31,385 nt of DNA from an uncultured Eubacteriales bacterium (GCA_964587625.1 CAZPLU010000030.1:1-31385); one strand, 5' to 3'. Positions 4,871 to 23,159 are shown, numbered from the stretch's first letter. Numbers and translations: made by a program. The notes: generated by a model not told the origin, from the letters alone.

Positions 4871-4896
4871 ACGTCTTCACTCCCGTTCAATGGTGG

Positions 4897-5949: not shown

Positions 5950-5950
5950 T

Positions 5951-7162
5951 TCAACACTCCCTGCCGGCTGTCATTAATTCATTTTTTTCTTTTTTTACCC
6001 CGGCGCCATAAAGCTCCCGCATCCGTTCCGCGACCGCTTCGGACGAAAATCCCCCGACCCGCGCGGCGTTGAATGCGCCGAAATCCCGACGCAGCGCGGC
6101 ATCGTCCATCAGTTCTTTCAACCCTTTTGCGAATCCGGATACATCCCGGGGAGCGTACAAAAAACCGCCCTTTCGGCTGACAATCAAATCCCTGTTGCCC
6201 CGGATATCGGAACACAACGCCGGCAGTCCGGCTGCCATCGCCTCCATCAGCGACAAGGGCAGCCCCTCTTGGAATGAGGATAAACACAACACATCGGCGC
6301 AGTGATAGAGGGCGGAAACATCACTGCGGTAACCCAAAAAATACACCCGTTCGGCAATGCCGAGTCGCTCGGCCAGCCGCCGCAGTTTTTGTTCTTCTCG
6401 ACCGAATCCCGCCAATATGTAGTGAATTGTGCTTGTCCGGGCGATCGCCTTTAATATGGTTTTTTGGTTCTTTCTCGCAGACAATTCGCCCACGGTGATT
6501 GCCGTAAACGCATCATGGCGTATGCAGAGCTTGTCCCGCAACGCTTCTCTGCTGACCGTCTCCGCTTGAAAGCGCGGCAGATCGACGCCGACTCCCTGTA
6601 CATAGACGGTATTCACGGCATACAGACGCCTTTTTGCAAATGTAAAATCCTCTTGGTTGATGGTGATCAAAAGATCGGTAAAACGCGAACAATACCGCTC
6701 GATGGGATAATAGACAAGCCAATTCAAAAGTGGCGCGCCCTTGTAAAAATGAAAGCCGTGCGCCGTGTAGATCATTTTTGCGCCGGCCGGCTTTCCGGCT
6801 TTTCGGGCACACAGCCGCGCCAAAACACCGCCGATCGGCGAATGGCAATGGACGATCCGGTATTGATTTTCCCGATAAATTTTTTGGAACATCCGTACCG
6901 AAGCGGCGATCTTTTTTAACGCGAGGATGTTTCTCGGGATGGGTATGTCGAATACTTGAATCCTGCGTTCTTGCAACTCCGCTTTGAATTCATCGACGCG
7001 TGCCCGGTCGGTGATGTTGCCGATCCGGAAATTAGCGGCCACATGGATCTCATACCCCAAGGATTGCAATATTTCGATGTTCCCCATGTTGAACAGATCG
7101 ATCATGGAGGCGACGGAAGCCGTCATCAGCGCTTTGGGTTTACCTTCAACGGCCGGCTTCAT
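5951..7162 (-). CDS. GT4-family (GT-B) glycosyltransferase
   Basis: EX7E region SSFQEGLPLSLMEAMAAGLPALCSD. The ORF track begins at GTG 7171. The ATG at 7162 (MKPAVEG...) has better spacing to the AAAGGGGTG RBS. First gene of the operon. Confidence 0.85.
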   Translation of the reverse strand: MKPAVEGKPKALMTASVASMIDLFNMGNIEILQSLGYEIHVAANFRIGNITDRARVDEFKAELQERRIQVFDIPIPRNILALKKIAASVRMFQKIYRENQYRIVHCHSPIGGVLARLCARKAGKPAGAKMIYTAHGFHFYKGAPLLNWLVYYPIERYCSRFTDLLITINQEDFTFAKRRLYAVNTVYVQGVGVDLPRFQAETVSREALRDKLCIRHDAFTAITVGELSARKNQKTILKAIARTSTIHYILAGFGREEQKLRRLAERLGIAERVYFLGYRSDVSALYHCADVLCLSSFQEGLPLSLMEAMAAGLPALCSDIRGNRDLIVSRKGGFLYAPRDVSGFAKGLKELMDDAALRRDFGAFNAARVGGFSSEAVAERMRELYGAGVKKEKNELMTAGREC

Positions 7163-7267
7163 AAACGTCACCCCTTTTCAAAGCCGTTCTTTTTACCGCA
7201 GAGTATCAAAACAGGATGTTCTTTTTATAGGAACGCAAGCTCCGGCGCCGTGTAGATTCTAAACGGA

Positions 7268-7378: not shown

Positions 7379-8329
7379 CTATTTCACCAAATCGCTCAAA
7401 TACCCGTACCCCTCGTTTTCCATGTCCTCTTTGGGGACAAACCGCAGCGCCGCGCTGTTGATGCAGTAGCGCAGTCCGCCCTTTTCCTTCGGTCCGTCGT
7501 TGAACACATGCCCCAGATGCGCGTCGCCGACCCGGCTGCGCACCTCGGTGCGGATCCTGCCGAACGACAGATCGGATTTTTCATGCACCACCGACGGGTC
7601 GATCGGCTTTGAAAACGCGGGCCAGCCGCAGCCCGATTCAAATTTATCGCTTGAAGAAAACAGCGGCTCTCCGCTGGTAATATCGACATAAATACCCTCA
7701 CGGTAGTGGTCGAAGAATTCATTTTGAAACGGCGGTTCGGTGGCGCTGTTTTGCGTGACCGCAAATTGCATCTCGCTTAGGTTTTTTTGCAACGCCTCGG
7801 CGTCCTGCGGCGTATAACCCGCCGGATTCACCACGGCTTTCGCGGCCTTTTCAAACTTCTCGGGTTTGATGTGACAGTACCCGCCCGGATTCTTGTCGAG
7901 ATATTTTTGGTGATATTCCTCGGCGGGATAAAAGTTTTCAAGCGGCTTGACTTCGATGGCGACCGGCTTTTCCAGACGCTTTTGCAAGTTCATAACCGAC
8001 TGTTTGATGATCGGAAAATCGGCCTCGTCGATATAATAGATCCCCGTGCGATATTGCGTTCCGGCGTCCCCGCCCTGCCTGTTCATTGAAGTCGGATCAA
8101 CGGCCGAATAGTAGAGTTCCAGCAAAAAGTCCGGCGGGACGATTTTCGGATCATATTCCACTTTTACCGTCTCGGCGTGACCGGTATCGTTGTCGCAGAC
8201 CTCCCGATAAGTCGGGTTCGCGGTTTTGCCGTTGGCATAGCCGACCTCGGTCGCCTTCACCCCGCGCACCGACGCAATATATTTTTCCATGCCCCAAAAG
8301 CAGCCGCCCGCCAAATAAATCTCCGCCAT
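7379..8329 (-). CDS. msrAB: bifunctional peptide-methionine (S)/(R)-S-oxide reductase MsrA-MsrB fusion
   Basis: The MsrA active site GGCFWG sits at the N-terminus. The MsrB domain carries GCGWPAF and the catalytic RYCINS. The ATG at 8329 is preceded by GAGGAGG (8341-8335). The track start at 8344 is a TTG inside that RBS. Confidence 0.93.
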
Positions 8330-8400
8330 AATGATCCTCCTCAAAAAACATATTTATTATATCCCATCGCAGCCGATACCATGATAAATATTGCGTCGGT

Positions 8401-11542: not shown

Positions 11543-12118
11543 TTATGCGGTTTTGATAAAAGAAAATCCCGACAACATATTTTCGAATAATTCATCGTTT
11601 GGCAAAACAAATTTATACAATTGACGGAATTTACCCTGCATTTGCGTGCTCCAACAGTAATAGATGGTATGCGAGCCGTCTTGGGAAGGCGTTAAAATAT
11701 ACCCATACTTGACATCCTCGATTAGTATATACTCAACAAACCCGAAATTGGAGTCCCGCTCTTTCAAAGAGATCATCTTCTTGACTTGTTCGTCGCTGGT
11801 ACCTTTCGGGAATAATTTGCTGTAGGATATCGAGATGTAGTACGCCTCGTTTTCGGTTTTCACGATCAAGACATCTTCAAATTCGCTGTCGAATTCGGCC
11901 AATTCTTCGTTGGTCGGCAACGAATAATAGAATCTCTCCTTGTATTCCTCATCCGTGAGCGCCCGCCAGCCCTCCGGAATCGTATAGGACAGCTCGAAGA
12001 ATTCGTTTTTATAGATCCCGTCTGTTACAGCGCCTCTTTTGGGCGACGCCGTGGTACAGCCGAACATCGAAAAAGCCAAAACGAGCAACAGAGACAACGC
12101 AATCAATTTTTTAAACAT
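11543..12118 (-). CDS. putative lipoprotein, function unknown
   Basis: MFKKLIALSLLLVLAFSMFGC is a signal peptide ending in a lipobox-like FGC. ATG at 12118 lies 9 nt from AAAGGA. The mature part has no recognisable family. Confidence 0.65.
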   Translation of the reverse strand: MFKKLIALSLLLVLAFSMFGCTTASPKRGAVTDGIYKNEFFELSYTIPEGWRALTDEEYKERFYYSLPTNEELAEFDSEFEDVLIVKTENEAYYISISYSKLFPKGTSDEQVKKMISLKERDSNFGFVEYILIEDVKYGYILTPSQDGSHTIYYCWSTQMQGKFRQLYKFVLPNDELFENMLSGFSFIKTA

Positions 12119-12368
12119 TGAAATCATCCTTTCGGTACGGAGCGTTTTCCGCGTTGTCATAATCTTATGACAGCGAACATGAAAACTTGCTCCTCAAAAC
12201 ATAAAGTTTGAATCATTATACCATCTTCCATTTGCACCTGTCAACTCGAAAATTGATGTAACTCTAAAAATGAAACGGCAAAAATGTCTTTTCCCATCTG
12301 CCGCATCACGGGCGTTTTGCAACGTTTGACATCACGGGTTCCCCTATCAATCGAAATCTCAGCTTCAA

Positions 12369-12443: not shown

Positions 12444-12674
12444 ATGCCTTTCGGATGGTGTGACAAGCAAAAAATCGCCGTTTCCAACGACAAAAAACTT
12501 ATGGTCAACAAGCGCCGCTGCTCCCAAAACCACCCCTGTCCCGCTGTCTGGGCCTGCCCGACAAAAGCGCTTTCGCAAATGAATTACGAGGCACCCGTTG
12601 TCGACGTTCAAAAATGCACCGGCTGCGGACATTGTATCAGTGCCTGTCCGCTTGGTGCGCTGTCGCTATTATAA
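12444..12674 (+). CDS. small 4Fe-4S ferredoxin-domain protein
   Basis: 76 aa. It has a canonical CTGCGHCISACP motif plus a second, non-canonical Cys set (C-x5-CP-x4-CP). GGAG lies 12 nt upstream of the ATG. Confidence 0.7.
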   Translation: MPFGWCDKQKIAVSNDKKLMVNKRRCSQNHPCPAVWACPTKALSQMNYEAPVVDVQKCTGCGHCISACPLGALSLL

Positions 12675-12713
12675 CCGAGAATCATAAAACATAACCGATA
12701 AGGAGGCATCCCC

Positions 12714-13022
12714 ATGTCAGTCATTCACATCACAAAAGATAATTTCCAGACCGAGGTCATGGAAAGCACCGTCCCTGTTCTGCTCGATTTTTGGGCGTCC
12801 TGGTGCGGCCCGTGCCGTATGGTCTCACCGGTTATCGGCGAGATTGCCCAAGAGACCCCGACGATCAAAGTCGGAAAGATCAATGTCGACGAACAGCGGG
12901 AGCTCGCCACCGCGTTCAACATCATGAGCATCCCCACGCTGGTCGTAATGAAGAACGGTAAAATCACCAATCAGGCACTCGGCGTCCGCCCCAAACAGCA
13001 AATCCTCTCCATGCTCAACTGA
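12714..13022 (+). CDS. trxA: thioredoxin
   Basis: 102 aa with the WCGPC active site (FWASWCGPCRM). The classic thioredoxin fold pattern is visible (KINVDE..., IPTLVVMKNG). AAGGAGG RBS. Confidence 0.93.
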   Translation: MSVIHITKDNFQTEVMESTVPVLLDFWASWCGPCRMVSPVIGEIAQETPTIKVGKINVDEQRELATAFNIMSIPTLVVMKNGKITNQALGVRPKQQILSMLN

Positions 13023-13041
13023 TCAACCGTTTTGCACCAAT

Positions 13042-13080
13042 AAACCCGCCGCTCGGCATTGATCGGGCGGCGGGTTTTTA
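13042..13080 (+). terminator. intrinsic terminator after trxA
   Basis: AAACCCGCCGC (13042-13052) pairs with GCGGCGGGTTT (13067-13077), followed by a T-run. Confidence 0.8.
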
Positions 13081-13177
13081 TTGGCGTGTTTCGTATGCAA
13101 GGGTATGGAAAAACCAATCGCCGCTTTTTCATATTGATTTTCAAACGGCTCGCTGTATATTTCATTCCGCAGGGAAT

Positions 13178-13831
13178 TTATATCATTGCCTCCAGCTTTT
13201 TGCGGTTTCTGATCTCTACCCCGCCGCGCGTCAAAATGATCATATCTTCGGTCTGGAAATAATTCAACATTCTCGTCACGACCTCACGCGCCGTTCCAAG
13301 GTGGTTTGCGATTATTTCGTGCGTGATTTTGAGCGCATGCGTCCCTTCCAAGTTGCTCTCATCAAGCAAAAACGCGGCAAGGCGCTTGTCGAAGCTCTTC
13401 CACATGATCTGTTCTATCAACCACATGACCTCCGAAAACCGCGAGGCCATGATTTCGTTGGTGTAATTTGCGATCACGGCGGAACGCTCCATCAGGTCTT
13501 TATAAATCGTCGTTGGAATCACCCATAATTCCGTGTCCTTCTCGGCCTCAATCGCGATCTCAAACTGGATACTCGACATCATGCATGAGGCGGAAAACAG
13601 ACAGATGTCCCGCTCAAACAGGCGGTAGATCGTGACCTCCCTGCCCTCATCTGATAATATGTATGCCCGCAGCTGACCCGAACGGATCAAAAAAAGGCCG
13701 ATGCAATCGGCGGAACCGCTGTAGACCATCGTCCCCTTTTTGACAAAACGGGGCTGTGCGGCTTGTGTAATTGTCGCTTTTTCGGCGGTGTTCAGCTTCT
13801 CCCAAATCGGGAAATATTCGGATATATCCAC
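13178..13831 (-). CDS. Crp/Fnr-family transcriptional regulator
   Basis: It has a cNMP-binding-like beta-roll and a C-terminal HTH, ITHEIIANHLGTAREVVTRMLNYFQTEDMI. This aligns without gaps to E. coli CRP [30 protein letters not shown], with the R-E-x3-R recognition residues conserved. The best start is GTG 13831, 5 nt after GAGGAGGGG. The ATG at 13855 lies inside the -10 box. There is no FNR-type N-terminal Cys cluster. Confidence 0.85.
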   Translation of the reverse strand: MDISEYFPIWEKLNTAEKATITQAAQPRFVKKGTMVYSGSADCIGLFLIRSGQLRAYILSDEGREVTIYRLFERDICLFSASCMMSSIQFEIAIEAEKDTELWVIPTTIYKDLMERSAVIANYTNEIMASRFSEVMWLIEQIMWKSFDKRLAAFLLDESNLEGTHALKITHEIIANHLGTAREVVTRMLNYFQTEDMIILTRGGVEIRNRKKLEAMI

Positions 13832-13853
13832 GATCTCCCCTCCTCTTTGCTTC

Positions 13854-13882
13854 ATTATAAAAACAATTTAAAAAAATGTCAA
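13854..13882 (-). promoter_or_regulatory. consensus sigma-A promoter of the Crp-family regulator
   Basis: Read on the minus strand: TTGACA (13882-13877), exactly 17 nt, TATAAT (13859-13854). Confidence 0.7.
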
Positions 13883-13890
13883 GAATGTTA

Positions 13891-13919
13891 TTGACATATG
13901 TCATATATAAGGGTATAAT
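13891..13919 (+). promoter_or_regulatory. consensus sigma-A promoter of the DUF5320/NifX/MinD-Fd operon
   Basis: TTGACA (13891-13896), exactly 17 nt, TATAAT (13914-13919). It lies back-to-back with the regulator promoter, with 8 bp between the two -35 boxes. Confidence 0.7.
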
Positions 13920-13942
13920 ATGTTTGTAAATGACATATGTCG
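13892..13942. promoter_or_regulatory. pair of TGACATATGTCA palindromic operator candidates
   Basis: A perfect 12-bp palindrome, TGACATATGTCA, sits at 13892-13903 and overlaps the -35. An 11/12 copy, TGACATATGTCg, sits at 13931-13942 just downstream of the predicted start site. Centres are 39 bp apart. Confidence 0.55.
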
Positions 13943-13963
13943 CTTAAGAAGGAGGTGAAACAT

Positions 13964-14215
13964 ATGCCGGGAATGAATGGAACAGGTCCGCTCGGCCTTG
14001 GATCGAGAACCGGGCGGGCATTGGGTCTTTGCGGCGAAAATCGGTCTATGGGCAGGTCTTCGAGATTTTTTCGGTGTGGTTGCAACCGTTATTATGGTTT
14101 TGGCAACAATCACAGCGATCCTGATGCGAATTCGAGAAAAGCCCTGAACGCGCGTAAAATCTTGCTGCAGGAACAACTCTCTGCCGTCAATGAACAACTG
14201 GAACGGCAAGAATGA
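13964..14215 (+). CDS. DUF5320-family protein
   Basis: 83 aa from the ATG at 13964, which lies 7 nt after AAGGAGGTG. The N-terminus MPGMNGTGPLGLGSRTGRALGLCG, the Gly/Arg/Cys-rich middle and the C-terminal coiled coil (LLQEQLSAVNEQLERQE) match the family pattern as I remember it. Confidence 0.7.
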   Translation: MPGMNGTGPLGLGSRTGRALGLCGENRSMGRSSRFFRCGCNRYYGFGNNHSDPDANSRKALNARKILLQEQLSAVNEQLERQE

Positions 14216-14222
14216 AACAAAC

Positions 14223-14254
14223 GCCGCCCTCCGAACAATCATTCGGAGGGCGGC
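14223..14254 (+). promoter_or_regulatory. GC-rich intra-operon stem-loop (no U-tract)
   Basis: GCCGCCCTCCGAA (14223-14235) pairs perfectly with TTCGGAGGGCGGC (14242-14254), a 13-bp stem with a 6-nt loop. It is followed directly by AAAAGGAG, the RBS of the next gene, rather than by a T-run. Confidence 0.7.
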
Positions 14255-14269
14255 AAAAGGAGAATGAAT

Positions 14270-14632
14270 ATGATGATCGCGATTCCGGTCAACGAGGCCG
14301 GTGAGCAAGCCGAAATTTGCGTCTCTTTCGGCAGATCGCCGTTTTTTCTGTTTCACGATACCGAGACGGGAAAAAATATCACCGAAGTCAATTCAGCGGC
14401 AACCGCACAGGGCGGTGCAGGTATCAAAGCGGCTCAATTTATCGTCGATAAAGGGGCAAAAGCACTAATCACGCCGCGTTGCGGTGAAAATGCCGCACAA
14501 GTGCTTAAATCCGCCGGTGTCGCAATTCATCAATGCGCAGGCATGAACACAACGCGAAACATTGCCGACTTCAAAGCCGGAAAGCTCGGGTTGCTCGGCG
14601 GCTTTCACGCCGGTTTTCACGGCGGACAGTAA
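14270..14632 (+). CDS. NifX/NifB-C-terminal-like Fe-Mo-cluster-binding-domain protein (COG1433 type)
   Basis: MMIAIPVNE...FGRSPFFLFHD...GAGIKAAQFIVDKGAKALITPRCGENAAQVLKSAGVAI fits the dinitrogenase FeMo-cofactor-binding fold family. The tail is His-rich (GGFHAGFHGGQ). ATG 14270 is 7 nt from GGAG, whereas the track start at 14264 is only 1 nt from it. Confidence 0.8.
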   Translation: MMIAIPVNEAGEQAEICVSFGRSPFFLFHDTETGKNITEVNSAATAQGGAGIKAAQFIVDKGAKALITPRCGENAAQVLKSAGVAIHQCAGMNTTRNIADFKAGKLGLLGGFHAGFHGGQ

Positions 14633-14643
14633 ATCAATAAACA

Positions 14644-15480
14644 ATGAAAGTCGCAGTACTCAGCGGAAAAGGCGGCACCGGCAAGACCTTCGTCAGCGTC
14701 AATCTCGCCGCTGCCGCCGACCGCGCCGTCTATGTCGATTGTGATGTTGAGGAACCAAACGGGCGATTATTTTTCAAGCCGGTAACCCCCGCCAAAGCGC
14801 CTGTCTATACCCCGCTGCCGACCTTTGACGCGCAAAAATGCACCGGCTGCCGAACATGCGTAAACTTCTGCAGGTTCAACGCATTGGCGTTTACTCGGGA
14901 AAAGCCGGTCGTGTTCGCGGGGATTTGCCACGGCTGCGGTGGATGCAAATGGGTCTGTCCGAACGGCGCGGTCGGCGAACAAAAACGTCGGGTCGGCGTT
15001 GTCGAAACCGGTCTAAGCGGCCATGTGCGCGTCGTGACCGGAATTCTCAATCCCGGCGAACCCTCGGGCGTTCCGGTCGTTAAAGCCGCGCTGAAAAACG
15101 TAAAACCCGATCCGCTTATCGTCATTGATTGCCCGCCGGGCAGTTCCTGTTCGGTCATGGAGAGCGTGGCGGATGCTGATTTCTGTCTCCTTGTTGCCGA
15201 ACCCACGGTCTTCGGATTGCACAATCTCAAAATGGTCGCTGCGCTTGTCCGTCTGTTTCGAAAACCGTTTGGCGTTGTCATCAATAAAATATGGGGGAGT
15301 TTTGAACCGCTCGAATCATTTTGCGAACAAAACGGCATCCCGATACTATGCCGAATCACTTACAGCGTGAACCTCGCGCAGTGCTGCGCGAAAGCTCAAA
15401 TCGCCGTTTTCGAAGACGACGGAATGAAAAATCTGTTTTCTCGGCTGCTTGATTCCATACAAAAGGAACTTTCGCCATGA
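14644..15480 (+). CDS. MinD/ParA-superfamily P-loop ATPase with inserted 2x[4Fe-4S] ferredoxin domain (COG1149 type)
   Basis: It has a deviant Walker A (SGKGGTGKT) and a DCDVEEPN motif. The two cluster motifs are CTGCRTCVNFC and CHGCGGCKWVCP. DCPPGSSCSV is also present. Confidence 0.88.
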   Translation: MKVAVLSGKGGTGKTFVSVNLAAAADRAVYVDCDVEEPNGRLFFKPVTPAKAPVYTPLPTFDAQKCTGCRTCVNFCRFNALAFTREKPVVFAGICHGCGGCKWVCPNGAVGEQKRRVGVVETGLSGHVRVVTGILNPGEPSGVPVVKAALKNVKPDPLIVIDCPPGSSCSVMESVADADFCLLVAEPTVFGLHNLKMVAALVRLFRKPFGVVINKIWGSFEPLESFCEQNGIPILCRITYSVNLAQCCAKAQIAVFEDDGMKNLFSRLLDSIQKELSP

Positions 15481-16364
15481 AAAAACTTCTGATCCTCAGC
15501 GGCAAAGGCGGCACCGGCAAAACCACGGCGGCAGCGGCATTCATCGCTTTTACCCAAGCTCGCGCTTTCGCCGATTGTGACGTCGACGCGCCCAATCTGC
15601 ATCTTATCACAAAATTGAATACGATTCCGAAGCGCGATGACTTTTACGGCTCCCAAAAAGCCGTGATCGACGCCGAGCAATGTACCGGCTGCGGATTGTG
15701 TACGGAGCGCTGCCGTTTTGGCGCGATCCGTCCGGCAGGTCGGAAGTATGTCGTCGGGGAATACGAATGCGAGGGCTGCGGCGTTTGTGAATTTGTCTGC
15801 CCCGCCGGGGCGATCACCCTCAACGACGATGTCTCCGGACAACTCGAGCTGTATCGCGGAGCGCGCGTCTTCTCGACGGCAACGCTCAAGATGGGACGCG
15901 GGAACTCCGGAAAACTTGTATCGCAAGTCAAATCGGCGCTGACTGACGCCCTGCCCGAGACCGAACTCCAAATCATCGACGGCTCGCCCGGCATCGGCTG
16001 TCCGGTCATCGCCTCAATAAGCGGGGTCGATCTTGTGCTCGTGGTCGCAGAACCGTCCCTCTCGGGGCGCAGCGATCTGCGGCGCATCCTCGAAACCGCC
16101 GCAATTCTCGGCGTAAAGACCGCCGTCTGCGTCAATAAATTCGATATCTGCCCCGAAAACACCGGAGCCATCAAAGCCCTTTGCGAATCCGAAAATATCC
16201 CTTTCGCCGGACAAATTCCCTACGACCGGCATGTGCCAAAAGCCATTAACGCCGGACGCAGCATCGCGGATATCGATTGTCCGGCCAGAGACGCTCTTTA
16301 TGCGGTTTTCGAGCGTGTATCGGCTCTTCTTGACGAGAGTAAAAAGAACGGCTCGATAGAATGA
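15477..16364 (+). CDS. second MinD/ParA-superfamily ATPase with inserted 2x[4Fe-4S] ferredoxin domain (paralogue)
   Basis: Motifs are SGKGGTGKT, DCDVDAPN, CTGCGLCTERC, CEGCGVCEFVCP and DGSPGIGCPV. Its start overlaps the upstream stop (ATGA at 15477-15480), which indicates translational coupling. Confidence 0.88.
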   Translation: MKKLLILSGKGGTGKTTAAAAFIAFTQARAFADCDVDAPNLHLITKLNTIPKRDDFYGSQKAVIDAEQCTGCGLCTERCRFGAIRPAGRKYVVGEYECEGCGVCEFVCPAGAITLNDDVSGQLELYRGARVFSTATLKMGRGNSGKLVSQVKSALTDALPETELQIIDGSPGIGCPVIASISGVDLVLVVAEPSLSGRSDLRRILETAAILGVKTAVCVNKFDICPENTGAIKALCESENIPFAGQIPYDRHVPKAINAGRSIADIDCPARDALYAVFERVSALLDESKKNGSIE

Positions 16365-16407
16365 ACCGATCCCGTATCAAAAAATGAATGATTTGGAGGA
16401 AAACAAT

Positions 16408-16764
16408 ATGAAAATTGCGGTTGCAAGCACGGGTCTGCAAATTTCCGAACACTTCGGGCATTGCGATAATTTCAACATCTATGAGACGGTGAGCGGAACG
16501 ATCCAAGGCAAGACCGTCATTCCGAATCCCGGTCATAAGCCCGGATTTTTACCCAATTTCTTAGGTGATTTGGGGGTTGAAGTGATCATCGCGGGCGGCA
16601 TGGGCGGCGGCGCGGTCGAAATCTTCAACAGCAGAAATATCGAGGTTGTTGTCGGCGCGCGCGGCAGCGCGCGAGAAGCGGTCGAGCACTATCTCAAAGG
16701 CAACCTCACCACCGGCGGCTCTGTCTGTCATAAACACGAGCACGCCGGAAACTGTGAAAAGTGA
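16408..16764 (+). CDS. NifX/NifB-C-terminal-like Fe-Mo-cluster-binding-domain protein (COG1433 type)
   Basis: MKIAVASTGLQISEHFGHCDNFNIYE...HKPGFLPNFLGDLGVEVIIAGGMGGGAVEIF is very typical of the family. ATG 16408 lies 8 nt after GGAGG. The tail is Cys/His-rich (SVCHKHEHAGNCEK). Confidence 0.85.
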   Translation: MKIAVASTGLQISEHFGHCDNFNIYETVSGTIQGKTVIPNPGHKPGFLPNFLGDLGVEVIIAGGMGGGAVEIFNSRNIEVVVGARGSAREAVEHYLKGNLTTGGSVCHKHEHAGNCEK

Positions 16765-16769: not shown

Positions 16770-17591
16770 TCAATAAACCAGCAGGCACATCTCCGACTGC
16801 GAACGCTTGGCAGTGACCATCCCGCTGTCATGCGCCGCGCAGGCGTCGTACGCGGTTATCCGAATCCGAAATTCCGGTCCGTTTTTCGTGTTTACAGCCA
16901 GTGTAAAAGCGGCTCTGCCGGCATATTCGGGCAAGTGCGGCCGCCGGATGCGCACAAACCCCTGCCCGCTGAGCACCAACCCGTTTTTACTGACATCGGA
17001 ACGCGCCACGTTGGCTCGCGGTCCGATGTCTGCTTGGTTTGCGATATGCCGTCCCGCCGCGTAAAAATGAATTCCGCTGTCGGCTCCGTCGACCGTATAA
17101 CGAATTGTGCGGTTTCCGACATTTCCACATGGGATGTAGGCGCGTAAAGCAGCCGTTTGATTGAAAAATTCGTCCTGAGGATTGGTGATATTGCCCTTGG
17201 CGAACCCCGTCAAGCCGAACCGATCGGCGAGCGGTGTAGACGGTTCGGAGGGTTTGGAAATTTCGGGGAAATTGGGTGGCTCGGGGGCGGGTAGCGTCGG
17301 CAGCTCGTTCAACGGTTCCGTCCGCTCCGTTCTGAATTGCAAAATCACCTGCAGTTTCCCAATCGTCCTCAAAACCTCATCGACGCTCTGCTCCGCGGCC
17401 TTTGTCATGGAGTTGTTATTGACATCTTCTTCACAGCGCTTGAGTATATATGTAACCTTTTTCCGCTCGACATCCGTCAAGCGGGACAAACTCTCTTCCT
17501 GCGCAGCCGCCGAGGCCTTCAGCAGCGCGACAATTTCGTTAAAACTGAACTCCGCTTCCGGGCTCAGTTCAAAAGTCATCGGAAATGACAT
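16770..17591 (-). CDS. hypothetical protein (helical N-domain, Pro-rich linker, C-terminal domain); no signal peptide
   Basis: The ATG at 17591 (MSFPMTFELSPEAEF...) lies 8 nt after GAGAGGG. The 86 codons upstream in the track ORF are Arg-rich junk that overlaps the neighbouring GT gene. The linker is LPTLPAPEPPNFPEISKPSEPSTP. The C-terminal ~150 aa match no family I recognise. Confidence 0.6.
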   Translation of the reverse strand: MSFPMTFELSPEAEFSFNEIVALLKASAAAQEESLSRLTDVERKKVTYILKRCEEDVNNNSMTKAAEQSVDEVLRTIGKLQVILQFRTERTEPLNELPTLPAPEPPNFPEISKPSEPSTPLADRFGLTGFAKGNITNPQDEFFNQTAALRAYIPCGNVGNRTIRYTVDGADSGIHFYAAGRHIANQADIGPRANVARSDVSKNGLVLSGQGFVRIRRPHLPEYAGRAAFTLAVNTKNGPEFRIRITAYDACAAHDSGMVTAKRSQSEMCLLVY

Positions 17592-17764
17592 TGCGGTACC
17601 CTCTCTTTTTTCGTGCAGTGGGCGTCGCTCATAACGCCGTATCCCATTATATAGCGGCCGGTTCCGGTCTGTGAGCGTTTTCAAACCCATGTTTCGGATT
17701 TCAGCGGCTTTTTGGCAAGAACGCTCTTTATCCGGACCAACACGCGGCTGCTTTTCGGCGCGGT

Positions 17765-19051
17765 CTAAAACCCTTCCAAGACGGGCTGCAGTTGTTCTTC
17801 CCAGATTCGGCGCGGATTGAAGTCGCGCCGGAGCATTGTTTTTGCCCACAATACGGGGTTGTTTCGCATCCGATTGACGATTTTTGCCGCGTGTTCCTCG
17901 AGATACGCCTCCTCTGACGGGGTGTAATTCTCCTTGGTGTCAAAGCCGAAATTGCGGGCGTCCCACCGCATAAAATACGCGCCGAAGCGCCGCCCGAGTT
18001 CTTCAAGTCCCGGAACGGCCTGATTGAGCACCAAAAAATTCCCCCTGCTTGCGGCCTCGAGCACCGTGAGATCGGACGGCTCGGAATAGGACGGGCAGAC
18101 AAACAGATTCGAAAGCGTGAACAGTTCCAAGACGCTTTTTTTCGGAAACCCCCTCGGCCAGCCCAAGTCGCTTGTGAATACCACTTGCTCCTTCTCAAGA
18201 CCTTTTTGAACGCCCGCCGCGCGCACGGTTCCCTTATAATGCGAATTGTCCGTGTCCGAGCACGGAAAATCACAGAAGATGACTTTGACCGTCAGTTCCG
18301 TCTTTTTTCGGATTGCACCCGCCAGCGAAGCCGCTTTTTCAAATTGTTTTTCGGGGGAGAGCCGCCCGGGACAGACCATCAGGATGTCCGGCGTCAGCAG
18401 ATCCGTTTGGAGCTGCAATTGTTTTATTTCATCACTCACAAAGGCAATGGGATCCAAACAATTGCCGACCACCCGACAACGCCCTTCCGGGATGCCGTAT
18501 TGTTGTGCCAACGCCGATATTCCCGCCTGCGCGGGATAGACATAAACGGTATTCGGCATCGGCGTATAACGGCACGAAAACGGATATTTTAAGACCGGAG
18601 GCCTGTTGGTCGGAGCCGAATGCGTAAAAGCGGTAAACCGAACTTTCGGAAGGTGTTCTTGCGCTTTTCGCACGGCGACATTGTGCACAAGATACCGGCC
18701 TTGAGCGTGGATATCGTGCATCGCGCAGATATTCACATCCGAGAGCGCGTTTTTTAAATCTGCGGCTATGACCTCTGCTTCGGCGAAAAAGGTCGTATGT
18801 AAATTGCCGTTCGGACGGCAATAGTCGCGCCATTGGATCCGCCTGCCGTCCAGTCGGTTTGTGATCTTGACCCACTCGAGCCGGTTGTCGGCAAAAACGC
18901 CTTTTCGGTCCCCGTCAGGGCAATCCTGGCTGACCAGGACCCTCGTCGGAACACCGGCGTCGAGCAACATTTTCAAGTGCTCCGCCACAATGCCGACCGT
19001 TAGATCATGGCTGTCAAGCCCGTTGAACATGGTTAAAACCGCGATTTTCAT
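17765..19051 (-). CDS. GT-B fold glycosyltransferase (GT4-like, divergent N-domain)
   Basis: 428 aa with the EX7E-type signature CPSYSEPSDLTVLEAASRG and GRLSPEKQFEKA. ATG 19051 lies 9 nt after GGGAGG. Confidence 0.7.
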   Translation of the reverse strand: MKIAVLTMFNGLDSHDLTVGIVAEHLKMLLDAGVPTRVLVSQDCPDGDRKGVFADNRLEWVKITNRLDGRRIQWRDYCRPNGNLHTTFFAEAEVIAADLKNALSDVNICAMHDIHAQGRYLVHNVAVRKAQEHLPKVRFTAFTHSAPTNRPPVLKYPFSCRYTPMPNTVYVYPAQAGISALAQQYGIPEGRCRVVGNCLDPIAFVSDEIKQLQLQTDLLTPDILMVCPGRLSPEKQFEKAASLAGAIRKKTELTVKVIFCDFPCSDTDNSHYKGTVRAAGVQKGLEKEQVVFTSDLGWPRGFPKKSVLELFTLSNLFVCPSYSEPSDLTVLEAASRGNFLVLNQAVPGLEELGRRFGAYFMRWDARNFGFDTKENYTPSEEAYLEEHAAKIVNRMRNNPVLWAKTMLRRDFNPRRIWEEQLQPVLEGF

Positions 19052-19169
19052 TGCTCCGAACCTCCCATCATGTCATGTTATGCATGGGGGACGGCAGCCA
19101 TAACCAAAATCTACGCTTCCGTTTTGTTGCAAGCGTTTTCAACGATATCGAATTGACTCTGTCTCCGAT

Positions 19170-19194
19170 AAAAAAGCCGCCGGTTTCCCGGCGG
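19170..19194 (-). terminator. intrinsic terminator after the solute-binding protein gene
   Basis: The minus-strand RNA reads CCGCCGG-GAAA-CCGGCGG, then C and six U. On the plus strand this is the A-run at 19170-19175 and the stem at 19177-19194. Confidence 0.8.
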
Positions 19195-19221
19195 TCATTT
19201 ATTGAAAAGAATATAATCGGT

Positions 19222-20877
19222 TTAATAGCGTTGCGTCGCCGTCTTTCCGATGGCGGCGTTGGACTCGACCAGCACCTGCTGGGCGCCGAGTTGTTCCATT
19301 GCGATGGCGTATTCGTTGAGGGCCTGCCCGACGGTGTAGTCCTCGTTGCTGATCGCATTTACAAAACAGGTGTGAAACGCCGTCAAAATGGCGTTGACAT
19401 TCGACGTGAGGGTTTTGGAAACGGGGAACGAATACGGCAGACCGCGCTTGATCGCAGTATTGGAATTCAATGCGGCGGTTACCGCCTGTTTTTCATATTC
19501 CATGATTTCCCGCGCGTGGATTCGCGCGTTCTCTTTGTCGCTGGTGATGATTTCGAGATTTTCGGAGTTGTACATCCCTTCGATGACACCCGCAAGGTTG
19601 GCCGTGTGGCGCTGTACATACACCCCTTCTCCCGCTTCCTCGGAGGCGTCCTCATCCAGCATTTTTTTAAGGGTGATCGAACCGTCGGAATTTCGGATAT
19701 AGTTTGCCGGCAGACCGACTCTGGCTTCCAGATAATTCGCCTGTGACCCGTAAAGCAGATCGACGAAAAAGTTGGCTGTCTCCGCCGGCTGTGCCGTGCC
19801 GTTGATCAGCACAAAAGCGCCTCCTTGCGGAAACAGCATCTGGGGCACTTCGAAATCGTTGTTCGCCAATGCCGGAATCTCGGTGTAAAAAGAGGTGAGT
19901 TCGTTCCATTTCGTATCCGTAGTAGGCCATTCCGCGGTCTGTTCGTAGATTGCATTTGCGGCGGCATAAAGACCGTAACCGTACTTGCCGTCTCCGGCGG
20001 TGGAATAATAGCTGCCATAATTGCCGTTTTCAAGTGAATTTCTGACATCTTCGGGCATCGTATCCCAGATATTCACATCGAGTGCTCCGGCTTGATACAG
20101 GTCGCGCAGATATTGCAGCGCCTCCACCGCCTCGGGCTGTAAAAACCCGTCGATGAAGGTGTCCGTCTCGGGGTCATAGGCATATCCGAGCTGGCCGGAG
20201 GTGTCAATACGCACGCCGAACGCATTTAAAATATCGATCGCCCAGGAGAGATCGGAGCCGCCGCCGATTGCGGTGCCTGCGATGTCGGAGTCGGTGACCG
20301 CGAGCGCATATTCCCTCAGCGACTGCAGATCGGTCGGAACTTCAAGGCCGAGCCGCTGCAGCCAGTCGTTACGGAAAGAACGGGTTTTCACCGCGTAATA
20401 GTAACTGCTCGGGATCGCCCAGATATGGCCGTCGATCATATACATGTTGCGCATTTCTTCGGGCAGCGAGAGCCATGCGGGGTTATTGGCCAAATAGTCC
20501 TCCAGCGGCAATATCGCACCCTCATCCTTGTAAAACTGCACCACATCGAGCGCGCCGTCACCCGCCACGTTGAAGACGCCGTGGATGTCCTGGGTTTTGA
20601 CCTGCTTCAACATGTCCGAATAGGTCGCGTCAACCGGTACGGTCACAGTGATATAGACCCCGTACCGCTCGGACATCGCATCGGTCCACTCCTTGCGCTC
20701 TTCGACCGTCAGGGTCTCGTCTCCGTAGTTATAAAAGAAACCCGGCGCTGTAATTTCGAGATCGGTCGGCAGCGCGAGATTTTCATATTTCGGCGCGGAG
20801 GGTGTCGAGCCGCTCGGCACGCAACCGCAGATGAAAACCGCCGCGACCAAAATGCCGGCAAATATGCGTTTTTTCAT
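19222..20877 (-). CDS. extracellular solute-binding lipoprotein (large family-1 ABC sugar-binding type)
   Basis: MKKRIFAGILVAAVFICGC is a signal/lipobox. The ~550-aa mature part has the composition typical of LplA-like sugar-binding proteins. ATG 20877 lies 8 nt after AAAGGA. No permease or ATPase genes lie beside it. Confidence 0.65.
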   Translation of the reverse strand: MKKRIFAGILVAAVFICGCVPSGSTPSAPKYENLALPTDLEITAPGFFYNYGDETLTVEERKEWTDAMSERYGVYITVTVPVDATYSDMLKQVKTQDIHGVFNVAGDGALDVVQFYKDEGAILPLEDYLANNPAWLSLPEEMRNMYMIDGHIWAIPSSYYYAVKTRSFRNDWLQRLGLEVPTDLQSLREYALAVTDSDIAGTAIGGGSDLSWAIDILNAFGVRIDTSGQLGYAYDPETDTFIDGFLQPEAVEALQYLRDLYQAGALDVNIWDTMPEDVRNSLENGNYGSYYSTAGDGKYGYGLYAAANAIYEQTAEWPTTDTKWNELTSFYTEIPALANNDFEVPQMLFPQGGAFVLINGTAQPAETANFFVDLLYGSQANYLEARVGLPANYIRNSDGSITLKKMLDEDASEEAGEGVYVQRHTANLAGVIEGMYNSENLEIITSDKENARIHAREIMEYEKQAVTAALNSNTAIKRGLPYSFPVSKTLTSNVNAILTAFHTCFVNAISNEDYTVGQALNEYAIAMEQLGAQQVLVESNAAIGKTATQRY

Positions 20878-20942
20878 ATCATCTGTCCTTTCGAATGGAA
20901 TCCTGCGTTTGTACATCTGTACGATTGTAATCTACCAAACCA

Positions 20943-22079
20943 TTATGAGTTTATCTGTTTGATTTCGTGAGGAACATTTGAGAAACAACCCCGTTTTTCC
21001 GACAACAATTTTTTAATGCGCGCCGCCGGATCGATTAAATCGCTGAGCGACTTGTCGTAATTGAGCGTGTCGATGAGCAGGGCGATGTATTTGGACATGT
21101 CCACTTCCTCATACCAACAACGCGATTTCAATTCATCGGTGCGGTAGTTGAGATTGGTTGTAAAGACCTTTGTGATCTGTTTGGCGGCGAAGGCCTCGTC
21201 AAACCGCGAAAGCCCCTCGCAAAACAGCCCGAAGGTGGCAAAGATGAAGATGCGCTGCGCGCCCATCTCCTTAAGGTGCCGGGTGATGTCGAGAATGGAA
21301 TCGCCGGAGGAGATCATATCGTCGACGATGACGATGTCTTTTCCCGTTACATTATTGCCCAAATATTCATGCGCGATGATCGGATTTCGCCCGTTTTCAA
21401 TGCGCGAATAGTCGCGGCGTTTATAATATATGCCCAAATCGAGCGATAAAATCGAGGAATAATACATACAGCGATCAATGCTGCCGGCATCCGGCGAGAC
21501 GATCAGCGTGTGATCCTTGTCCAATTTGACGTCGGGAACCGCGCGGTAGATGGCCTTAATCATCTGGTAATAGGGTTTGATGTTTTCAAATCCGCAAAAC
21601 GGAACGGCGTTTTGAACCCGTGAATCGTGGGCGTCGAAGGTGATGATGTTTACGGCGCCGATGTTTTGAAGTTCCTGGAGCATGATGGCGCAGTCGAGCG
21701 ATTCCCGCGCGGTTCTGCGGTGCTGGCGTCCGCCGTAGAGCATCGGCATGATCACATTGATTCGCCTTGCTTTGCCGCCTGCGGCGGCGATGATGCGTTT
21801 GAGATCGCCGTAGTGGTCATCCGGGCTCATCCGGTTGTCGATGCCGTACATGTTGTAAGTGGTGCCGTAATCGAAGATATCGCACAAAATAAAAAGGTCG
21901 TCCCCGCGCACCGACTGGTTGATCATTCCCTTGCTCTCACCGGTGCCGAACCGCGGACAACATATGTTTACGAGGAAACTCTGTCCGCTGCCGCGCCATT
22001 CCTTGATATAGCCGTCGGCCCGGGTGGCGATCTCGCTGCAGCCCTGCAGCGGGATGATTCCCAGTTTACCGACGGGCAT
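20943..22079 (-). CDS. prs: ribose-phosphate pyrophosphokinase (PRPP synthetase)-like protein, long form
   Basis: MPVGKLGIIPLQGCSEIA resembles Prs N-termini. RRINVIMPMLYGGRQHRR and ITFDAHD match the Prs catalytic/flexible-loop regions. The PRPP loop is IVIVDDMISSGDSILD. ATG is at 22079, with an alternative GTG at 22106 after GGAG. The track ORF extends upstream into the GT2 gene, and that extension is not credible. Confidence 0.75.
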   Translation of the reverse strand: MPVGKLGIIPLQGCSEIATRADGYIKEWRGSGQSFLVNICCPRFGTGESKGMINQSVRGDDLFILCDIFDYGTTYNMYGIDNRMSPDDHYGDLKRIIAAAGGKARRINVIMPMLYGGRQHRRTARESLDCAIMLQELQNIGAVNIITFDAHDSRVQNAVPFCGFENIKPYYQMIKAIYRAVPDVKLDKDHTLIVSPDAGSIDRCMYYSSILSLDLGIYYKRRDYSRIENGRNPIIAHEYLGNNVTGKDIVIVDDMISSGDSILDITRHLKEMGAQRIFIFATFGLFCEGLSRFDEAFAAKQITKVFTTNLNYRTDELKSRCWYEEVDMSKYIALLIDTLNYDKSLSDLIDPAARIKKLLSEKRGCFSNVPHEIKQINS

Positions 22080-22137
22080 CAGATTGTCTTCGATCGCACT
22101 GCTCACAAATACCACGCTCCATACTTTTTTCAATGAT

Positions 22138-22166
22138 ATTATACCCTTTAAACCCGGTTTTGTCAA
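22138..22166 (-). promoter_or_regulatory. consensus sigma-A promoter for prs, embedded in the 3' end of the GT2 gene
   Basis: Read on the minus strand: TTGACA (22166-22161, overlapping the GT2 stop codon), exactly 17 nt (AAACCGGGTTTAAAGGG), TATAAT (22143-22138). Confidence 0.7.
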
Positions 22167-23146
22167 TGTCCCGCCGCGGCTTGCTTTTGCCATCTCGGGG
22201 CAATGATCCGTTTGCAAACCCATCGAAAAAGAGGGTAACAGACGCCGGCAGAAACCAGTTGAATTTTTTCCCTTGAAGAGTATACATCCGTGGTAAAAAT
22301 GCCGCGTATATGCGCTCTCAGGTATTTGCTCCACTTTTTCCTGATTGTCGGAAATGCTCTTTGTGTTTGCGTTGAAGTGAATCCGCATATAACGGCTCTC
22401 TTCATATAATTGCACATGTCCAAATACGTCAGCACCATGGCATCCGGATAGGCCGGCGGAAATTCCATTTTGCAAAGCTTTGCAACTCTGACGCTTTGCA
22501 ACTCGAATGAATCAATTTTCGCTTTTGATAAACCCAACCCGGTCCTGTAAAAATACAGCTCATTGTCACAGGAGACATAACACCTGCATTTTGAAAAAAA
22601 CTGATAACATGCAATCACATCTTCATGTTTCAAGCCCACCTCAAATGCAAATCCATCGACAATTGTTCTGCGATAAATCCGACCCCAAACCCCCGTTTTA
22701 TTGGTCCGAAAATAGGCGCTCAGGATATTTTCATGACGCACAACGACCGCTCCCGGCTCCGATCCGTGAAACAGTGTGTTAGGGTCTCGCGTAAAACCGC
22801 ATTCCGCAATATCGGCTTCGTGTTTTTTCGCCAATTGATACAGGATTTTAAACATATATTCACTGACCGTATCGTCACTGTCGACAAATCCGACATACTC
22901 GCCGACGGCTATTTTCATACCGGCGTTACGCGCATCCGACACACCGCCATTGGACTTATGGATCACCTTGATCCGTTTATCCTCACATGCCATGCGGTCA
23001 CAGATATCCCCGCACCGATCAGGGCTCCCGTCATCCACAAGGATGATTTCGATTTCTCTTAAAGCTTGACGCTGCACGCCGGCAACACATTCTTCCAAAT
23101 AGGCCTCGGTCTTGTAAACCGGGATAATAACGCTGACTTTAACCAT
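22163..23146 (-). CDS. GT2-family (GT-A) glycosyltransferase
   Basis: Motifs are VSVIIPVYKTEAYLEECV, ILVDDGSPD and the DxD motif VDSDD. ATG 23146 lies 6 nt after GGGGGA. Confidence 0.88.
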   Translation of the reverse strand: MVKVSVIIPVYKTEAYLEECVAGVQRQALREIEIILVDDGSPDRCGDICDRMACEDKRIKVIHKSNGGVSDARNAGMKIAVGEYVGFVDSDDTVSEYMFKILYQLAKKHEADIAECGFTRDPNTLFHGSEPGAVVVRHENILSAYFRTNKTGVWGRIYRRTIVDGFAFEVGLKHEDVIACYQFFSKCRCYVSCDNELYFYRTGLGLSKAKIDSFELQSVRVAKLCKMEFPPAYPDAMVLTYLDMCNYMKRAVICGFTSTQTQRAFPTIRKKWSKYLRAHIRGIFTTDVYSSREKIQLVSAGVCYPLFRWVCKRIIAPRWQKQAAAGH

Positions 23147-23159
23147 CGGGTTTCCCCCT

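Follow-up and report, generated by a model that had tools for sequence, protein, structure and literature searches.

A clostridial orange protein (ORP) operon with paired ferredoxin-ATPases: comparative clues to metal-sulfur cluster handling

We analyzed a 31,385-nt stretch of DNA from an uncultured Eubacteriales bacterium (GCA_964587625.1 CAZPLU010000030.1:1-31385; hereafter the window) and, within it, the region 12444-16764, which carries eight open reading frames (ORFs). The last five (13964-16764) form an operon encoding a DUF5320 protein, a NifX-like carrier (N1), two paralogous ATPases (A1 and A2), and a second NifX-like carrier (N2). On sequence comparison we identify it, with high confidence, as a Bacillota-type ORP (orange protein) operon, the clostridial copy of a gene cluster known from sulfate reducers. 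The ORP cluster itself is known; what is new here is a set of comparative clues, read from sequence, that concern DUF5320, a conserved operator, a switch-II Cys, gene fusions, and neighboring genes. The data fit a role in metal-sulfur cluster handling and not in nitrogenase cofactor synthesis, as an earlier note on this stretch had proposed. That the operon encodes an ATP- and electron-driven machine that moves or mobilizes Fe-S clusters is a reading to which we would give an even chance.

About 170 related loci were compared: 80 ATPase-centered genome loci from a one-genome-per-species scan spanning more than 15 phyla, a few loci fetched earlier, and 80 metagenome loci (L092-L171) centered on orthologs of a Crp-like gene that adjoins the operon. 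Gene calls in these loci were naive longest ORFs, annotation used our own hidden Markov models (HMMs) built from few seeds, and counts of DUF5320, Mrp-like, and Zn-ribbon genes are approximate.

Identification of an ORP-type core operon

The first lead was N2, which matches positions 261-365 of the NCBIfam model MrpORP (NF041136, "iron-sulfur cluster carrier protein MrpORP") at 108 bits. When the Desulfovibrio gigas ORP sequence was taken from PDB 2WFB, orthologs at 69-75% identity proved to be the first genes of two Desulfobacterota loci, L009 and L010, whose gene order is ORP, ATPase, ATPase, Nitro_FeMo-Co protein, and small Zn-ribbon protein. The four-gene core of the window is co-linear with both. 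N1 shares 34-40% identity with the ORP orthologs at the same position, A1 36-37% with the first ATPase (29-31% with the second), A2 40-42% with the second ATPase (31-33% with the first), and N2 35-36% with the downstream carrier. Because each window protein best matches its positional counterpart and the genes are co-linear, we take the four-gene core to be an ORP core operon.

A system of this kind that has been purified is the ORP complex of Desulfovibrio vulgaris. In it, Orp3 and Orp4 are paralogous ATPases with two [4Fe-4S] motifs each, Orp8 is the orange protein itself, of the Nitro_FeMo-Co family and noted for its Mo-Cu-S cluster, and Orp5 is a further member of the complex, a homolog of which was reported to bind [2Fe-2S] (PMC6345978). 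In Orp9 (MrpORP), an Mrp/NBP35 domain is joined to a Nitro_FeMo-Co domain (PMC6345978). Orp3, Orp4, and Orp8 co-purify with MrpORP (PMC6345978, PMC8359166); they also bind Fe-S clusters and accept clusters from it in vitro (PMC6345978). The window encodes two adjacent paralogous MinD-like ATPases with two [4Fe-4S] motifs each and, beside them, a single-domain ORP-type Nitro_FeMo-Co protein, N1, which matches MTH1175 (E = 1.8e-14), TM1290 (1.9e-12), and D. gigas ORP (2WFB; 1.6e-7) in the PDB. An Mrp/NBP35::Di-Nase fusion of the Orp9/MrpORP type is not in the window, where only the Di-Nase part occurs as free-standing N2 (108 bits against the NF041136 cutoff of 450), and no Mrp-type ATPase was found among the large window ORFs scanned against Pfam.

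The earlier note had these families co-occurring in anaerobes with no experimentally assigned role. The co-occurrence is seen across the 80 loci and their more than 15 phyla. As to the role, no defined biochemical function has been assigned, and the Desulfovibrio authors still call that of the ORP complex "unclear" (PMC8359166), but an experimental history does exist (PMC6345978, PMC8359166). Literature searches on COG1149/COG1433 and on expression data returned nothing relevant. The reported lack of nitrogenase genes was borne out: Pfam scans of the other large window ORFs detected no nifHDK, nifEN, or nifB, and the TIGR01290 (nifB) match scored 18 bits, compared with a cutoff of 344.

A1 and A2 as a pair of ferredoxin-ATPases

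All motifs ascribed earlier to the two ATPases are present, i.e., SGKGGTGKT, DCDV(E/D)xPN, and two CxxCxxCxxxC motifs in each, together with an ATGA overlap of the two genes at 15477-15480. Both proteins have the features of the COG1149 type: a deviant Walker A (KGGxGKT), switch I DxDV, a two-cluster ferredoxin insert after switch I, and Walker B DxPPG. Close homologs carry the JGI name "MinD superfamily P-loop ATPase." Across 167 ATPase sequences, Walker A, switch I, and all eight ferredoxin Cys were invariant or nearly so, and a switch-II Cys three residues past the Walker B DxPPG (C175 in A2) was present in every one.

Among 86 loci (the window and five others fetched earlier, added to the 80), 81 kept the order A1-A2. 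Four exceptions were truncated at a contig end, and the fifth is a natural A1::A2 fusion, one 610-aa protein (L074:7053-8885). Given this constant adjacency and order and the fusion, A1 and A2 almost certainly function as a pair, in line with what had been proposed for them, and the sequences predict with high confidence a heterodimeric MinD-fold ATPase whose subunits each have their own two-[4Fe-4S] electron-transfer domain.

An AlphaFold2 (AF2) model of A2 had a pLDDT of 93, and its top Foldseek matches were MinD, FlhG/FleN, ATPase-type HypB, Cfd1, CooC1, and NifH/BchL. The nearest folds are thus those of ATPases that deliver cofactors or dimerize (MinD, HypB, Cfd1, CooC, and NifH). The ferredoxin insert was absent from every solved Foldseek relative, and a PDB search turned up no solved structure of the A1/A2 family. 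Structurally, MinD, FlhG, and ParA came closest (Foldseek E about 1e-11 to 1e-12, TM-score 0.57-0.71), which bears on a different explanation, namely that the MinD-like ATPases serve cell division or positioning and place the septum or a polar complex. The Desulfovibrio group first proposed such a role for the ORP proteins, which counts against the movement of Fe-S clusters; loss of OrpR leads to morphological defects in D. vulgaris, and MrpORP is found at the cell pole (PMC8359166, PMC6345978). The likeness is, however, one of fold only, at 15-21% identity, and with the minD models TIGR01968/TIGR01969 A1 and A2 reach 28-43 bits against cutoffs of 202-213. Their C-termini are unconserved and end in no MinD-like amphipathic membrane-targeting tail, Min and Fts families were absent among the most frequent neighbor families listed, and Min systems have no use for eight invariant ferredoxin Cys or for carrier genes. 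In the authors' own words the role is "still unclear" (PMC8359166), and we consider a division or positioning system very unlikely.

The carriers and DUF5320

N1 of the Bacillota type is distinguished from D. gigas ORP by a C-terminal FHxGFHG tail and by two Cys, neither of which has a counterpart there; each Cys occurs in about half of 48 N1 orthologs. N2 has an HFGHC motif and a C-terminal Cys/His cluster and matches PDB 1T3V/1O13 at 1e-13, and its H23, H26, C27, and H51 were conserved in 30-33 of 35 orthologs.

Across phyla, DUF5320 proteins have an invariant N-terminus (MP-x-x-DGTGP-x-G-x-GP-x-TGRG-x-G-x-C), with Cys23 invariant in our alignment A6. They contain 24% Gly, 10% Arg, and one conserved Cys and are often rich in aromatic residues; the C-terminal end is either a coiled coil, as in the window protein, or a C4 zinc ribbon. 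The window protein has the N-terminal motif MPGxDGTGPxGxGxxTGRGxGxC, followed by a Gly/Arg/Cys-rich stretch; its AF2 model leaves residues 1-57 unstructured (pLDDT about 50-55) and gives a helix for residues 58-82 (pLDDT 82-96). A word-index homolog search recovered the query alone, the PDB yielded no sequence match, and literature searches on DUF5320 found nothing relevant. A zinc-ribbon DUF5320-like form that keeps the DGTGP motif (CVCPxCG...CPxCG) was seen in L070, L071, L072, L075, L084, L087, and L091; several paralogs are possible per cluster, and the one scanned (L071:5035-5265) gave no Pfam DUF5320 match.

Gene fusions connect DUF5320-like sequence to the carriers. A single 291-aa chain at L075:5112-5987 unites a Nitro_FeMo-Co domain, DUF5320 (40.8 bits; cutoff, 27), and a two-[4Fe-4S] ferredoxin, three gene products that are separate in the window. 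Together with the A1::A2 fusion in L074, it lends indirect support to a physical association of the proteins. Carriers are fused to a Gly/Arg stretch plus coiled coil in L044, L046, L062, and L072, to a Gly/Arg stretch plus zinc ribbon in L041, and to a Gly/Arg tail in L050, L055, L078, and L089. This architecture is that of IssA of Pyrococcus furiosus, whose cationic Gly/Arg/aromatic tail, which holds its sole Cys, was proposed to wrap anionic thioferrate (PMC5524996). IssA can rebuild the ferredoxin [4Fe-4S] cluster when dithiothreitol is present (PMC13066941), and MTH1175 has been assigned to the IssA clade (PMC5524996). From the carrier fusions, the composition, the architecture of IssA, and the placement of MTH1175, DUF5320 looks like a detached IssA-type cationic tail. 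No window protein combines a Nitro_FeMo-Co domain with a long cationic tail in one polypeptide, the N1 tail comprising only about 17 residues.

The hairpin that follows the DUF5320 gene may set the ratio of DUF5320 to downstream expression or stabilize the transcript, and would fit an excess of DUF5320 over the products of the downstream genes. Hairpins of other sequence stand at the same position in L005 and L007.

Distribution and genomic neighborhood

The 80 ATPase-centered loci came from Bacillota, Synergistota, Spirochaetota, Chloroflexota, Thermodesulfobacteriota, Planctomycetota, Verrucomicrobiota, Armatimonadota, Aminicenantes, Omnitrophota, and several archaeal lineages. A homolog search with A2 gave at least 8000 matches, and A2 identity was 60-70% across clostridial orders and to a Synergistota homolog. 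By local HMM annotation, the tandem ATPase pair was found in 75 of the 80 loci (the remainder fused or cut off at a contig end), at least one Nitro_FeMo-Co gene in 73, and at least two in 50. A DUF5320-motif ORF occurred in 33, DUF134 and an Mrp-like ATPase in 30 each, a Zn-ribbon protein in 16, and an MrpORP-like fusion of roughly 400 aa in 8. The gene order is thus kept far beyond this genome and is no chance adjacency, the alternative that the earlier note had named.

A scan of 178 unassigned ORFs within or directly flanking the clusters returned most often further DUF5320 copies (14), NifU_N, an IscU-like scaffold (13), the metallo-beta-lactamase fold (9), and radical SAM proteins (9); rarer were PAS/sigma-54 activators of the OrpR type (3-4 loci), FUR (2), and rhodanese (2). 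Mo/W-transport, TOBE, and molybdopterin/Moco families were absent among the 25 most frequent neighbor families listed in either scan. These neighbors point to Fe-S handling (IscU-like, Mrp-like) and not to Mo or W.

The neighborhood bears directly on whether the system handles a heterometal, i.e., whether the carriers bind thiomolybdate- or thiotungstate-type (Mo/W-Cu-S) clusters that the ATPases load, reduce, or detoxify in sulfide-rich habitats. N1 is homologous to the founding ORP, which carried [S2MoS2CuS2MoS2] on isolation (cited in PMC6345978), and the Nitro_FeMo-Co fold also binds FeMo-co. On the other hand, N1 has Cys and His residues missing in ORP, and plain Fe-S species are bound by MrpORP's Di-Nase domain (PMC6345978) and by IssA (PMC5524996). 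Because no Mo or W family was among the most frequent families of the neighbor ORFs, in which IscU-like, Mrp-like, and FUR proteins do appear, we downgraded this explanation and now hold it to be unlikely.

Promoter, operator, and candidate regulators

Upstream of the operon, the consensus promoter and the two palindromes of the earlier note were both found. The palindromes are not private to this genome: O1 and O2 are copies, 39 bp apart, of a widely conserved 12-bp operator with the consensus TGRCATATGYCA. At least 28 of 73 genome loci matched the consensus in the promoter window, for which 0.043 matches were expected, and 16 loci had two or more copies, with a spacing of 36-40 bp in 13 of the 16 and of 23 bp in 3. 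The same promoter-operator layout was seen in L005, L007, L008, L012, L018, L023, L024, L028, L039, and others, regardless of whether the first gene was DUF5320, DUF134, or N1. Loci with the operator belong to Clostridia, Negativicutes, and Erysipelotrichaceae (Bacillota), Synergistaceae (Synergistota), and Sphaerochaeta (one Spirochaetota locus). Since a strong sigma-70 promoter is flanked by two conserved operator copies, this layout suggests repression. The conditional control of the operon, read from its promoter in the earlier note, is supported.

An FNR/CRP box (TTGA-N6-TCAA) was considered for the operator and rejected: the conserved part is the inner RCATATGY core and the outer bases vary; at O1 the latter coincide with the -35 hexamer. 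DUF5320 as an autoregulator that binds the operator is disfavored, as the operator is also found where no DUF5320 is nearby (L013, L017, L019, L020, and L034). DUF134, which has a weak match to a DeoR-type helix-turn-helix (HTH), is fused to N1 through a Cys-rich linker (CGCGGCRxH), directly behind the operator, at L013:6446-7171, L016:6458-7180, L017:6386-7174, and L019:6431-7171, and the fusion protein looks like a cluster-sensing transcription factor. With the operator next to DUF134 genes, these fusions, and the HTH match, a DUF134-family protein encoded elsewhere in the genome is the likeliest operator binder and the best candidate repressor. It weighs against this assignment that DUF134 is absent from the 31-kb window and from the operons of the closest relatives, which keep the operator. 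Literature searches on DUF134/UPF0251 found nothing relevant.

The fusions also raise the possibility that the operon mainly regulates and does not supply clusters, with carriers that inform transcription factors of Fe-S or redox status and ATPases that reset the sensor. They put a DNA-binding domain on the N1 carrier, they stand alone with no ATPase genes in several Crp-centered loci, and the operator upstream of DUF134 or DUF5320 genes makes for an autoregulation-like layout. The full cluster is, however, large and conserved at 60-70% identity between bacterial orders, and its consensus promoter and frequent scaffold and carrier genes (IscU-like, Mrp-like) fit a metabolic machine better. A sensor device therefore appears quite improbable.

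In D. vulgaris, expression of the orp operons is confined to low redox potential and depends on the Fe-S-containing activator OrpR, which is said to be limited to Deltaproteobacteria (PMC8359166). Pfam scans found no sigma-54 activator of the OrpR type encoded in the window, where the operon promoter is of the sigma-70 consensus. By analogy with OrpR, the Crp-like regulator encoded divergently from the operon may tie its expression to redox state. The ATGTCAA...TTGACAT palindrome, previously taken for a regulatory site of its own, consists of the -35 hexamers of the crp-like gene and the operon placed back to back (TGTCAA-N8-TTGACA, 13877-13896). It may double as a putative site of the Crp-like regulator: a GTCAA-N8-TTGAC core, centered near -41.5 of both promoters, recurs upstream of Crp orthologs (31 of 65 distinct regions, L092-L171), even where the divergent gene encodes superoxide reductase. 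A second Crp-type site upstream of the ferredoxin gene (12239-12258, 2 mismatches) was not significant, 14 of 100 shuffles being as good; this weak TGTCAA-N8-TTGATG match overlaps the -35 box of a promoter at 12244..12215.

Proposed mechanism and significance

If the operon does encode a machine that moves or mobilizes Fe-S clusters, its steps might be as follows, a scheme that we hold at, or a shade below, even confidence. N1 would hold an anionic iron-sulfur species, aided in trans by the cationic, disordered, dimerizing DUF5320 as a detached IssA-like tail. ATP binding would close the A1/A2 heterodimer, in which the switch-II Cys and the ferredoxin inserts would form an electron-fed site at the interface. 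Low-potential electrons arriving through the inserts could then reductively convert the N1-held species or release it as a [4Fe-4S]-type cluster, which N2 would hand on; in other genomes, Mrp/NBP35 and IscU-like proteins would share this hand-over step.

Several observations weigh against this scheme. By sequence, MTH1175 is a closer relative of N1 than D. gigas ORP is, and N1 carries two Cys where the latter has none; the sole native cofactor reported for an ORP, in work cited in PMC6345978, is a Mo-Cu-S cluster. DUF5320 was detected in only 33 of the 80 loci, so that the core can do without it. No Mrp and no IscU-like partner is encoded in the window, and a bridging site at the switch-II Cys of the A1/A2 dimer is a conjecture.

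We would go further only in speculation, and think it unlikely, that DUF5320, the carriers, and the ATPase pair might be a widespread Fe-S store with a release engine, a counterpart of ferritin for a sulfide world, in anaerobic archaea as well as bacteria. DUF5320 would be a disordered RGG-type scaffold wrapping or condensing an anionic thioferrate-type polymer, from which ATP and low-potential electrons would mobilize [4Fe-4S] clusters, and DUF134 proteins would be cluster-sensing repressors of a new family, acting on TGRCATATGYCA.

Few gene sets of strict anaerobes are as widely conserved as the ORP/COG1149/COG1433 cluster (more than 15 phyla and at least 8000 close ATPase homologs), and about 25 years after the discovery of the orange protein it is still without an assigned biochemical function. 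If the moving or mobilizing of Fe-S clusters is its function, this would fill a gap in the account of how anaerobes, gut clostridia and methanogens among them, supply very large Fe-S proteomes, and would join three separate lines of work, on ORP, IssA/thioferrate, and Mrp/NBP35. The window operon will be no surprise to a specialist; the link of DUF5320 to the IssA tail, the fusions, the invariant Cys, and the operator make ORP function more directly testable.

The adjoining Fd-Trx-Crp genes

The small ferredoxin (Fd), thioredoxin (Trx), and Crp-like genes precede the operon, and the earlier note had joined all eight genes in one island. This was not upheld, as the genes are better seen as two modules: Fd-Trx-Crp recurs beside superoxide-reductase and rubrerythrin genes, mostly with no ORP genes nearby. 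We lean slightly toward the view that these three genes are an oxidative-stress/thiol-redox module that merely adjoins the ORP operon in this lineage.

The Crp-like protein matches PDB 3DV8 (E = 1.5e-93), an entry described no further than as a Crp/Fnr-family transcriptional regulator, and has a cNMP-binding-like sensor domain and a C-terminal Crp-type HTH. It is not FNR proper, scoring 46.7 bits with NF008365 (cutoff, 228) and having only C43, C76, and C81 and no N-terminal Cys cluster. Its orthologs (63-84% identity) adjoin Trx, desulfoferrodoxin, rubrerythrin, or ORP-type genes, which suggests a redox or oxidative-stress regulator. Among the 53 Crp-ortholog loci with enough flank, 33 had no ORP-type gene within 3 kb upstream, and the divergent neighbors there included desulfoferrodoxin (8), rubrerythrin or ferritin-like, rubredoxin, and thioredoxin-system genes. 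In 19 of 60 loci whose flanks were long enough, a Trx gene converged on the Crp-like gene, and a small Fd-like ORF lay within 3.5 kb of it in 18 of the 80 metagenome loci; near the ATPase-centered genome loci a Trx-like or Fd-like ORF was found in only 2-4 of 80. The operator is absent upstream of Fd-Trx, and a hairpin with a T-run sets trx apart. Conversely, a divergent ORP-type gene was present in the other 20 of the 53 loci, directly adjacent in 14, L016 independently holds Trx and Fd upstream of its ORP cluster, and in L075 a ferredoxin domain is fused to carrier and DUF5320. These cases make a functional link between Fd-Trx-Crp and the operon plausible.

A methionine sulfoxide reductase fusion, MsrA-MsrB (7379-8344, minus strand), lies 4 kb from the thioredoxin gene and adds a thiol/oxidative-repair flavor to the area.

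Gene calls and other features of the window

All eight ORFs were recovered at the coordinates first given for the region, with four starts corrected (DUF5320, crp-like, N1, and N2), and Pfam backs all eight family assignments made earlier, 7 of the 8 top matches passing the gathering cutoff (Table 1). For DUF5320 the likeliest start is ATG 13964, with a GGAGG ribosome-binding site, and a public collection calls the same start. The crp-like start was moved to GTG 13831, downstream of its own -10 box, and that of N1 to about 14270/14273. The N2 ORF is open upstream to 16384; its likeliest start is ATG 16408 (118 aa), with GGAGG at 16394. Close matches are in uncultured Oscillospiraceae and Eubacteriales metagenome-assembled genomes, the group to which the window probably belongs.

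Table 1. Coordinates of genes and sites in the region 12444-16764
Feature	Position	Strand	Evidence
Small ferredoxin, 76 aa	12444..12674	+	Pfam Fer4 38 bits; one canonical CxxCxxCxxxCP and one atypical Cys motif
Thioredoxin TrxA, 102 aa, WCGPC	12714..13022	+	Pfam Thioredoxin 103.9 bits; TIGR01068 118 bits (cutoff, 96.8)
GC-rich hairpin followed by a T-run, common to the convergent trx and crp-like genes	13042..13082	.	Read from sequence
Crp/Fnr-family regulator, 217 aa	13178..13831	-	HTH_Crp_2 PF13545 57.7 bits; cNMP_binding PF00027 34.9 bits
Promoter of crp-like gene, TTGACA-17-TATAAT	13854..13882	-	Sigma-70 consensus 12/12
Promoter of five-gene operon	13891..13919	+	Sigma-70 consensus 12/12
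Operator copy O1, TGACATATGTCA, palindrome overlapping the -35 box	13892..13903	.	Motif match
Operator copy O2, TGACATATGTCG, near-copy of O1 just past the -10 box (about +5 to +17)	13931..13942	.	Motif match
DUF5320 (PF17253) protein, 83 aa	13964..14215	+	Pfam 55.6 bits (cutoff, 27)
Intergenic hairpin with no U-tract	14223..14254	+	dG -28.8 kcal/mol, z = -6.8
NifX-like 1 (N1), ORP/MTH1175-type Nitro_FeMo-Co carrier	14273..14632	+	Pfam 60.4 bits (cutoff, 26.3)
ATPase A1, MinD/SIMIBI fold with inserted 2x[4Fe-4S] ferredoxin domain	14644..15480	+	Pfam CbiA and Fer4
ATPase A2, paralog of A1	15477..16364	+	Pfam CbiA and Fer4
NifX-like 2 (N2), TM1816/MrpORP-C-terminal-type carrier	16408..16764	+	Pfam Nitro_FeMo-Co (PF02579/IPR003731) 75.3 bits (cutoff, 26.3)

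The hairpin between the trx and crp-like genes is probably a bidirectional terminator; our terminator scan missed it because the loop exceeds 8 bases. Scanning the window for Rfam families and tRNAs gave no matches.

To the left of the region, a 205-aa protein (11543-12160, minus strand) with a lipoprotein-like N-terminus and no Pfam match has a perfect extended -10 consensus promoter, the one at 12244..12215 mentioned above. To the right, a 359-aa ORF (16770-17849, minus strand), also with no Pfam match, is convergent with the operon; in the syntenic relatives L005 and L006, the corresponding area has A_ENA (endospore appendage) genes and ORFs with no annotation. Two runs of glycosyltransferase genes (2773-7171 and 17765-24365, minus strand), with TupA-like ATP-grasp, galactokinase-like, and PRPP-synthetase-like genes, probably serve cell-envelope polysaccharide synthesis. 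A Jag/KhpB and YidC gene pair lies at 24588-26955 (minus strand), an arrangement that is often close to the replication origin; the cumulative GC skew drops almost steadily over the window, with no clear switch.

Comparison with known systems

By its published description, the D. vulgaris ORP complex resembles the window operon in its paired MinD-like ATPases with two [4Fe-4S] motifs each, in its ORP-type and MrpORP-C-terminal-type Nitro_FeMo-Co modules, in its limitation to anaerobes, and in signs of redox-linked control; the sequences compared were those of L009 and L010. Unlike that system, the window has no Mrp/NBP35 domain, N2 standing alone, and no small Zn-ribbon or Cys-rich protein, and its first gene encodes DUF5320. 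Control differs from that in D. vulgaris as well, with a sigma-70 promoter, an operator, and a Crp-like neighbor in place of sigma-54, OrpR, and IHF. Compared with D. gigas ORP, which binds its cluster non-covalently, N1 adds two Cys and a His-rich tail.

IssA shares with the window the Nitro_FeMo-Co domain and a cationic, disordered Gly/Arg/aromatic sequence with a single Cys, found in its tail and in DUF5320. In the window, however, domain and tail are separate proteins, and DUF5320 has, in addition, a coiled coil and an N-terminal motif that is invariant. Partner ATPases have not been described for IssA, and thioferrate is a putative ligand in the window system.

NifH together with NifX, NafY, or the NifB C-terminus offers a further parallel: a dimeric SIMIBI ATPase with Fe-S and a switch-II Cys, acting alongside Nitro_FeMo-Co-fold carriers of a metal-sulfur cluster. 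D168 and C175 of A2 are spaced like D125 and C132 of NifH. The systems differ in that the window has no nifHDK, nifEN, or nifB and its electrons would pass through inserted ferredoxin domains and not through a single bridging cluster; identity is 12-15%.

Mrp/NBP35-Cfd1, CooC, and ATPase-type HypB have in common with A1 and A2 the fold, the deviant Walker A, and a nucleotide-dependent dimerization that makes or releases an interface metal site, which for the window pair is predicted by likeness. The COG1149 proteins lack the CxxC or CxC interface motif of these ATPases and have instead one invariant switch-II Cys, plus a two-cluster ferredoxin insert. From MinD, FlhG, and ParA, finally, A1 and A2 differ in having no membrane-targeting helix and no MinC or MinE partner, and their ferredoxin insert and metal-carrier context are foreign to Min systems.

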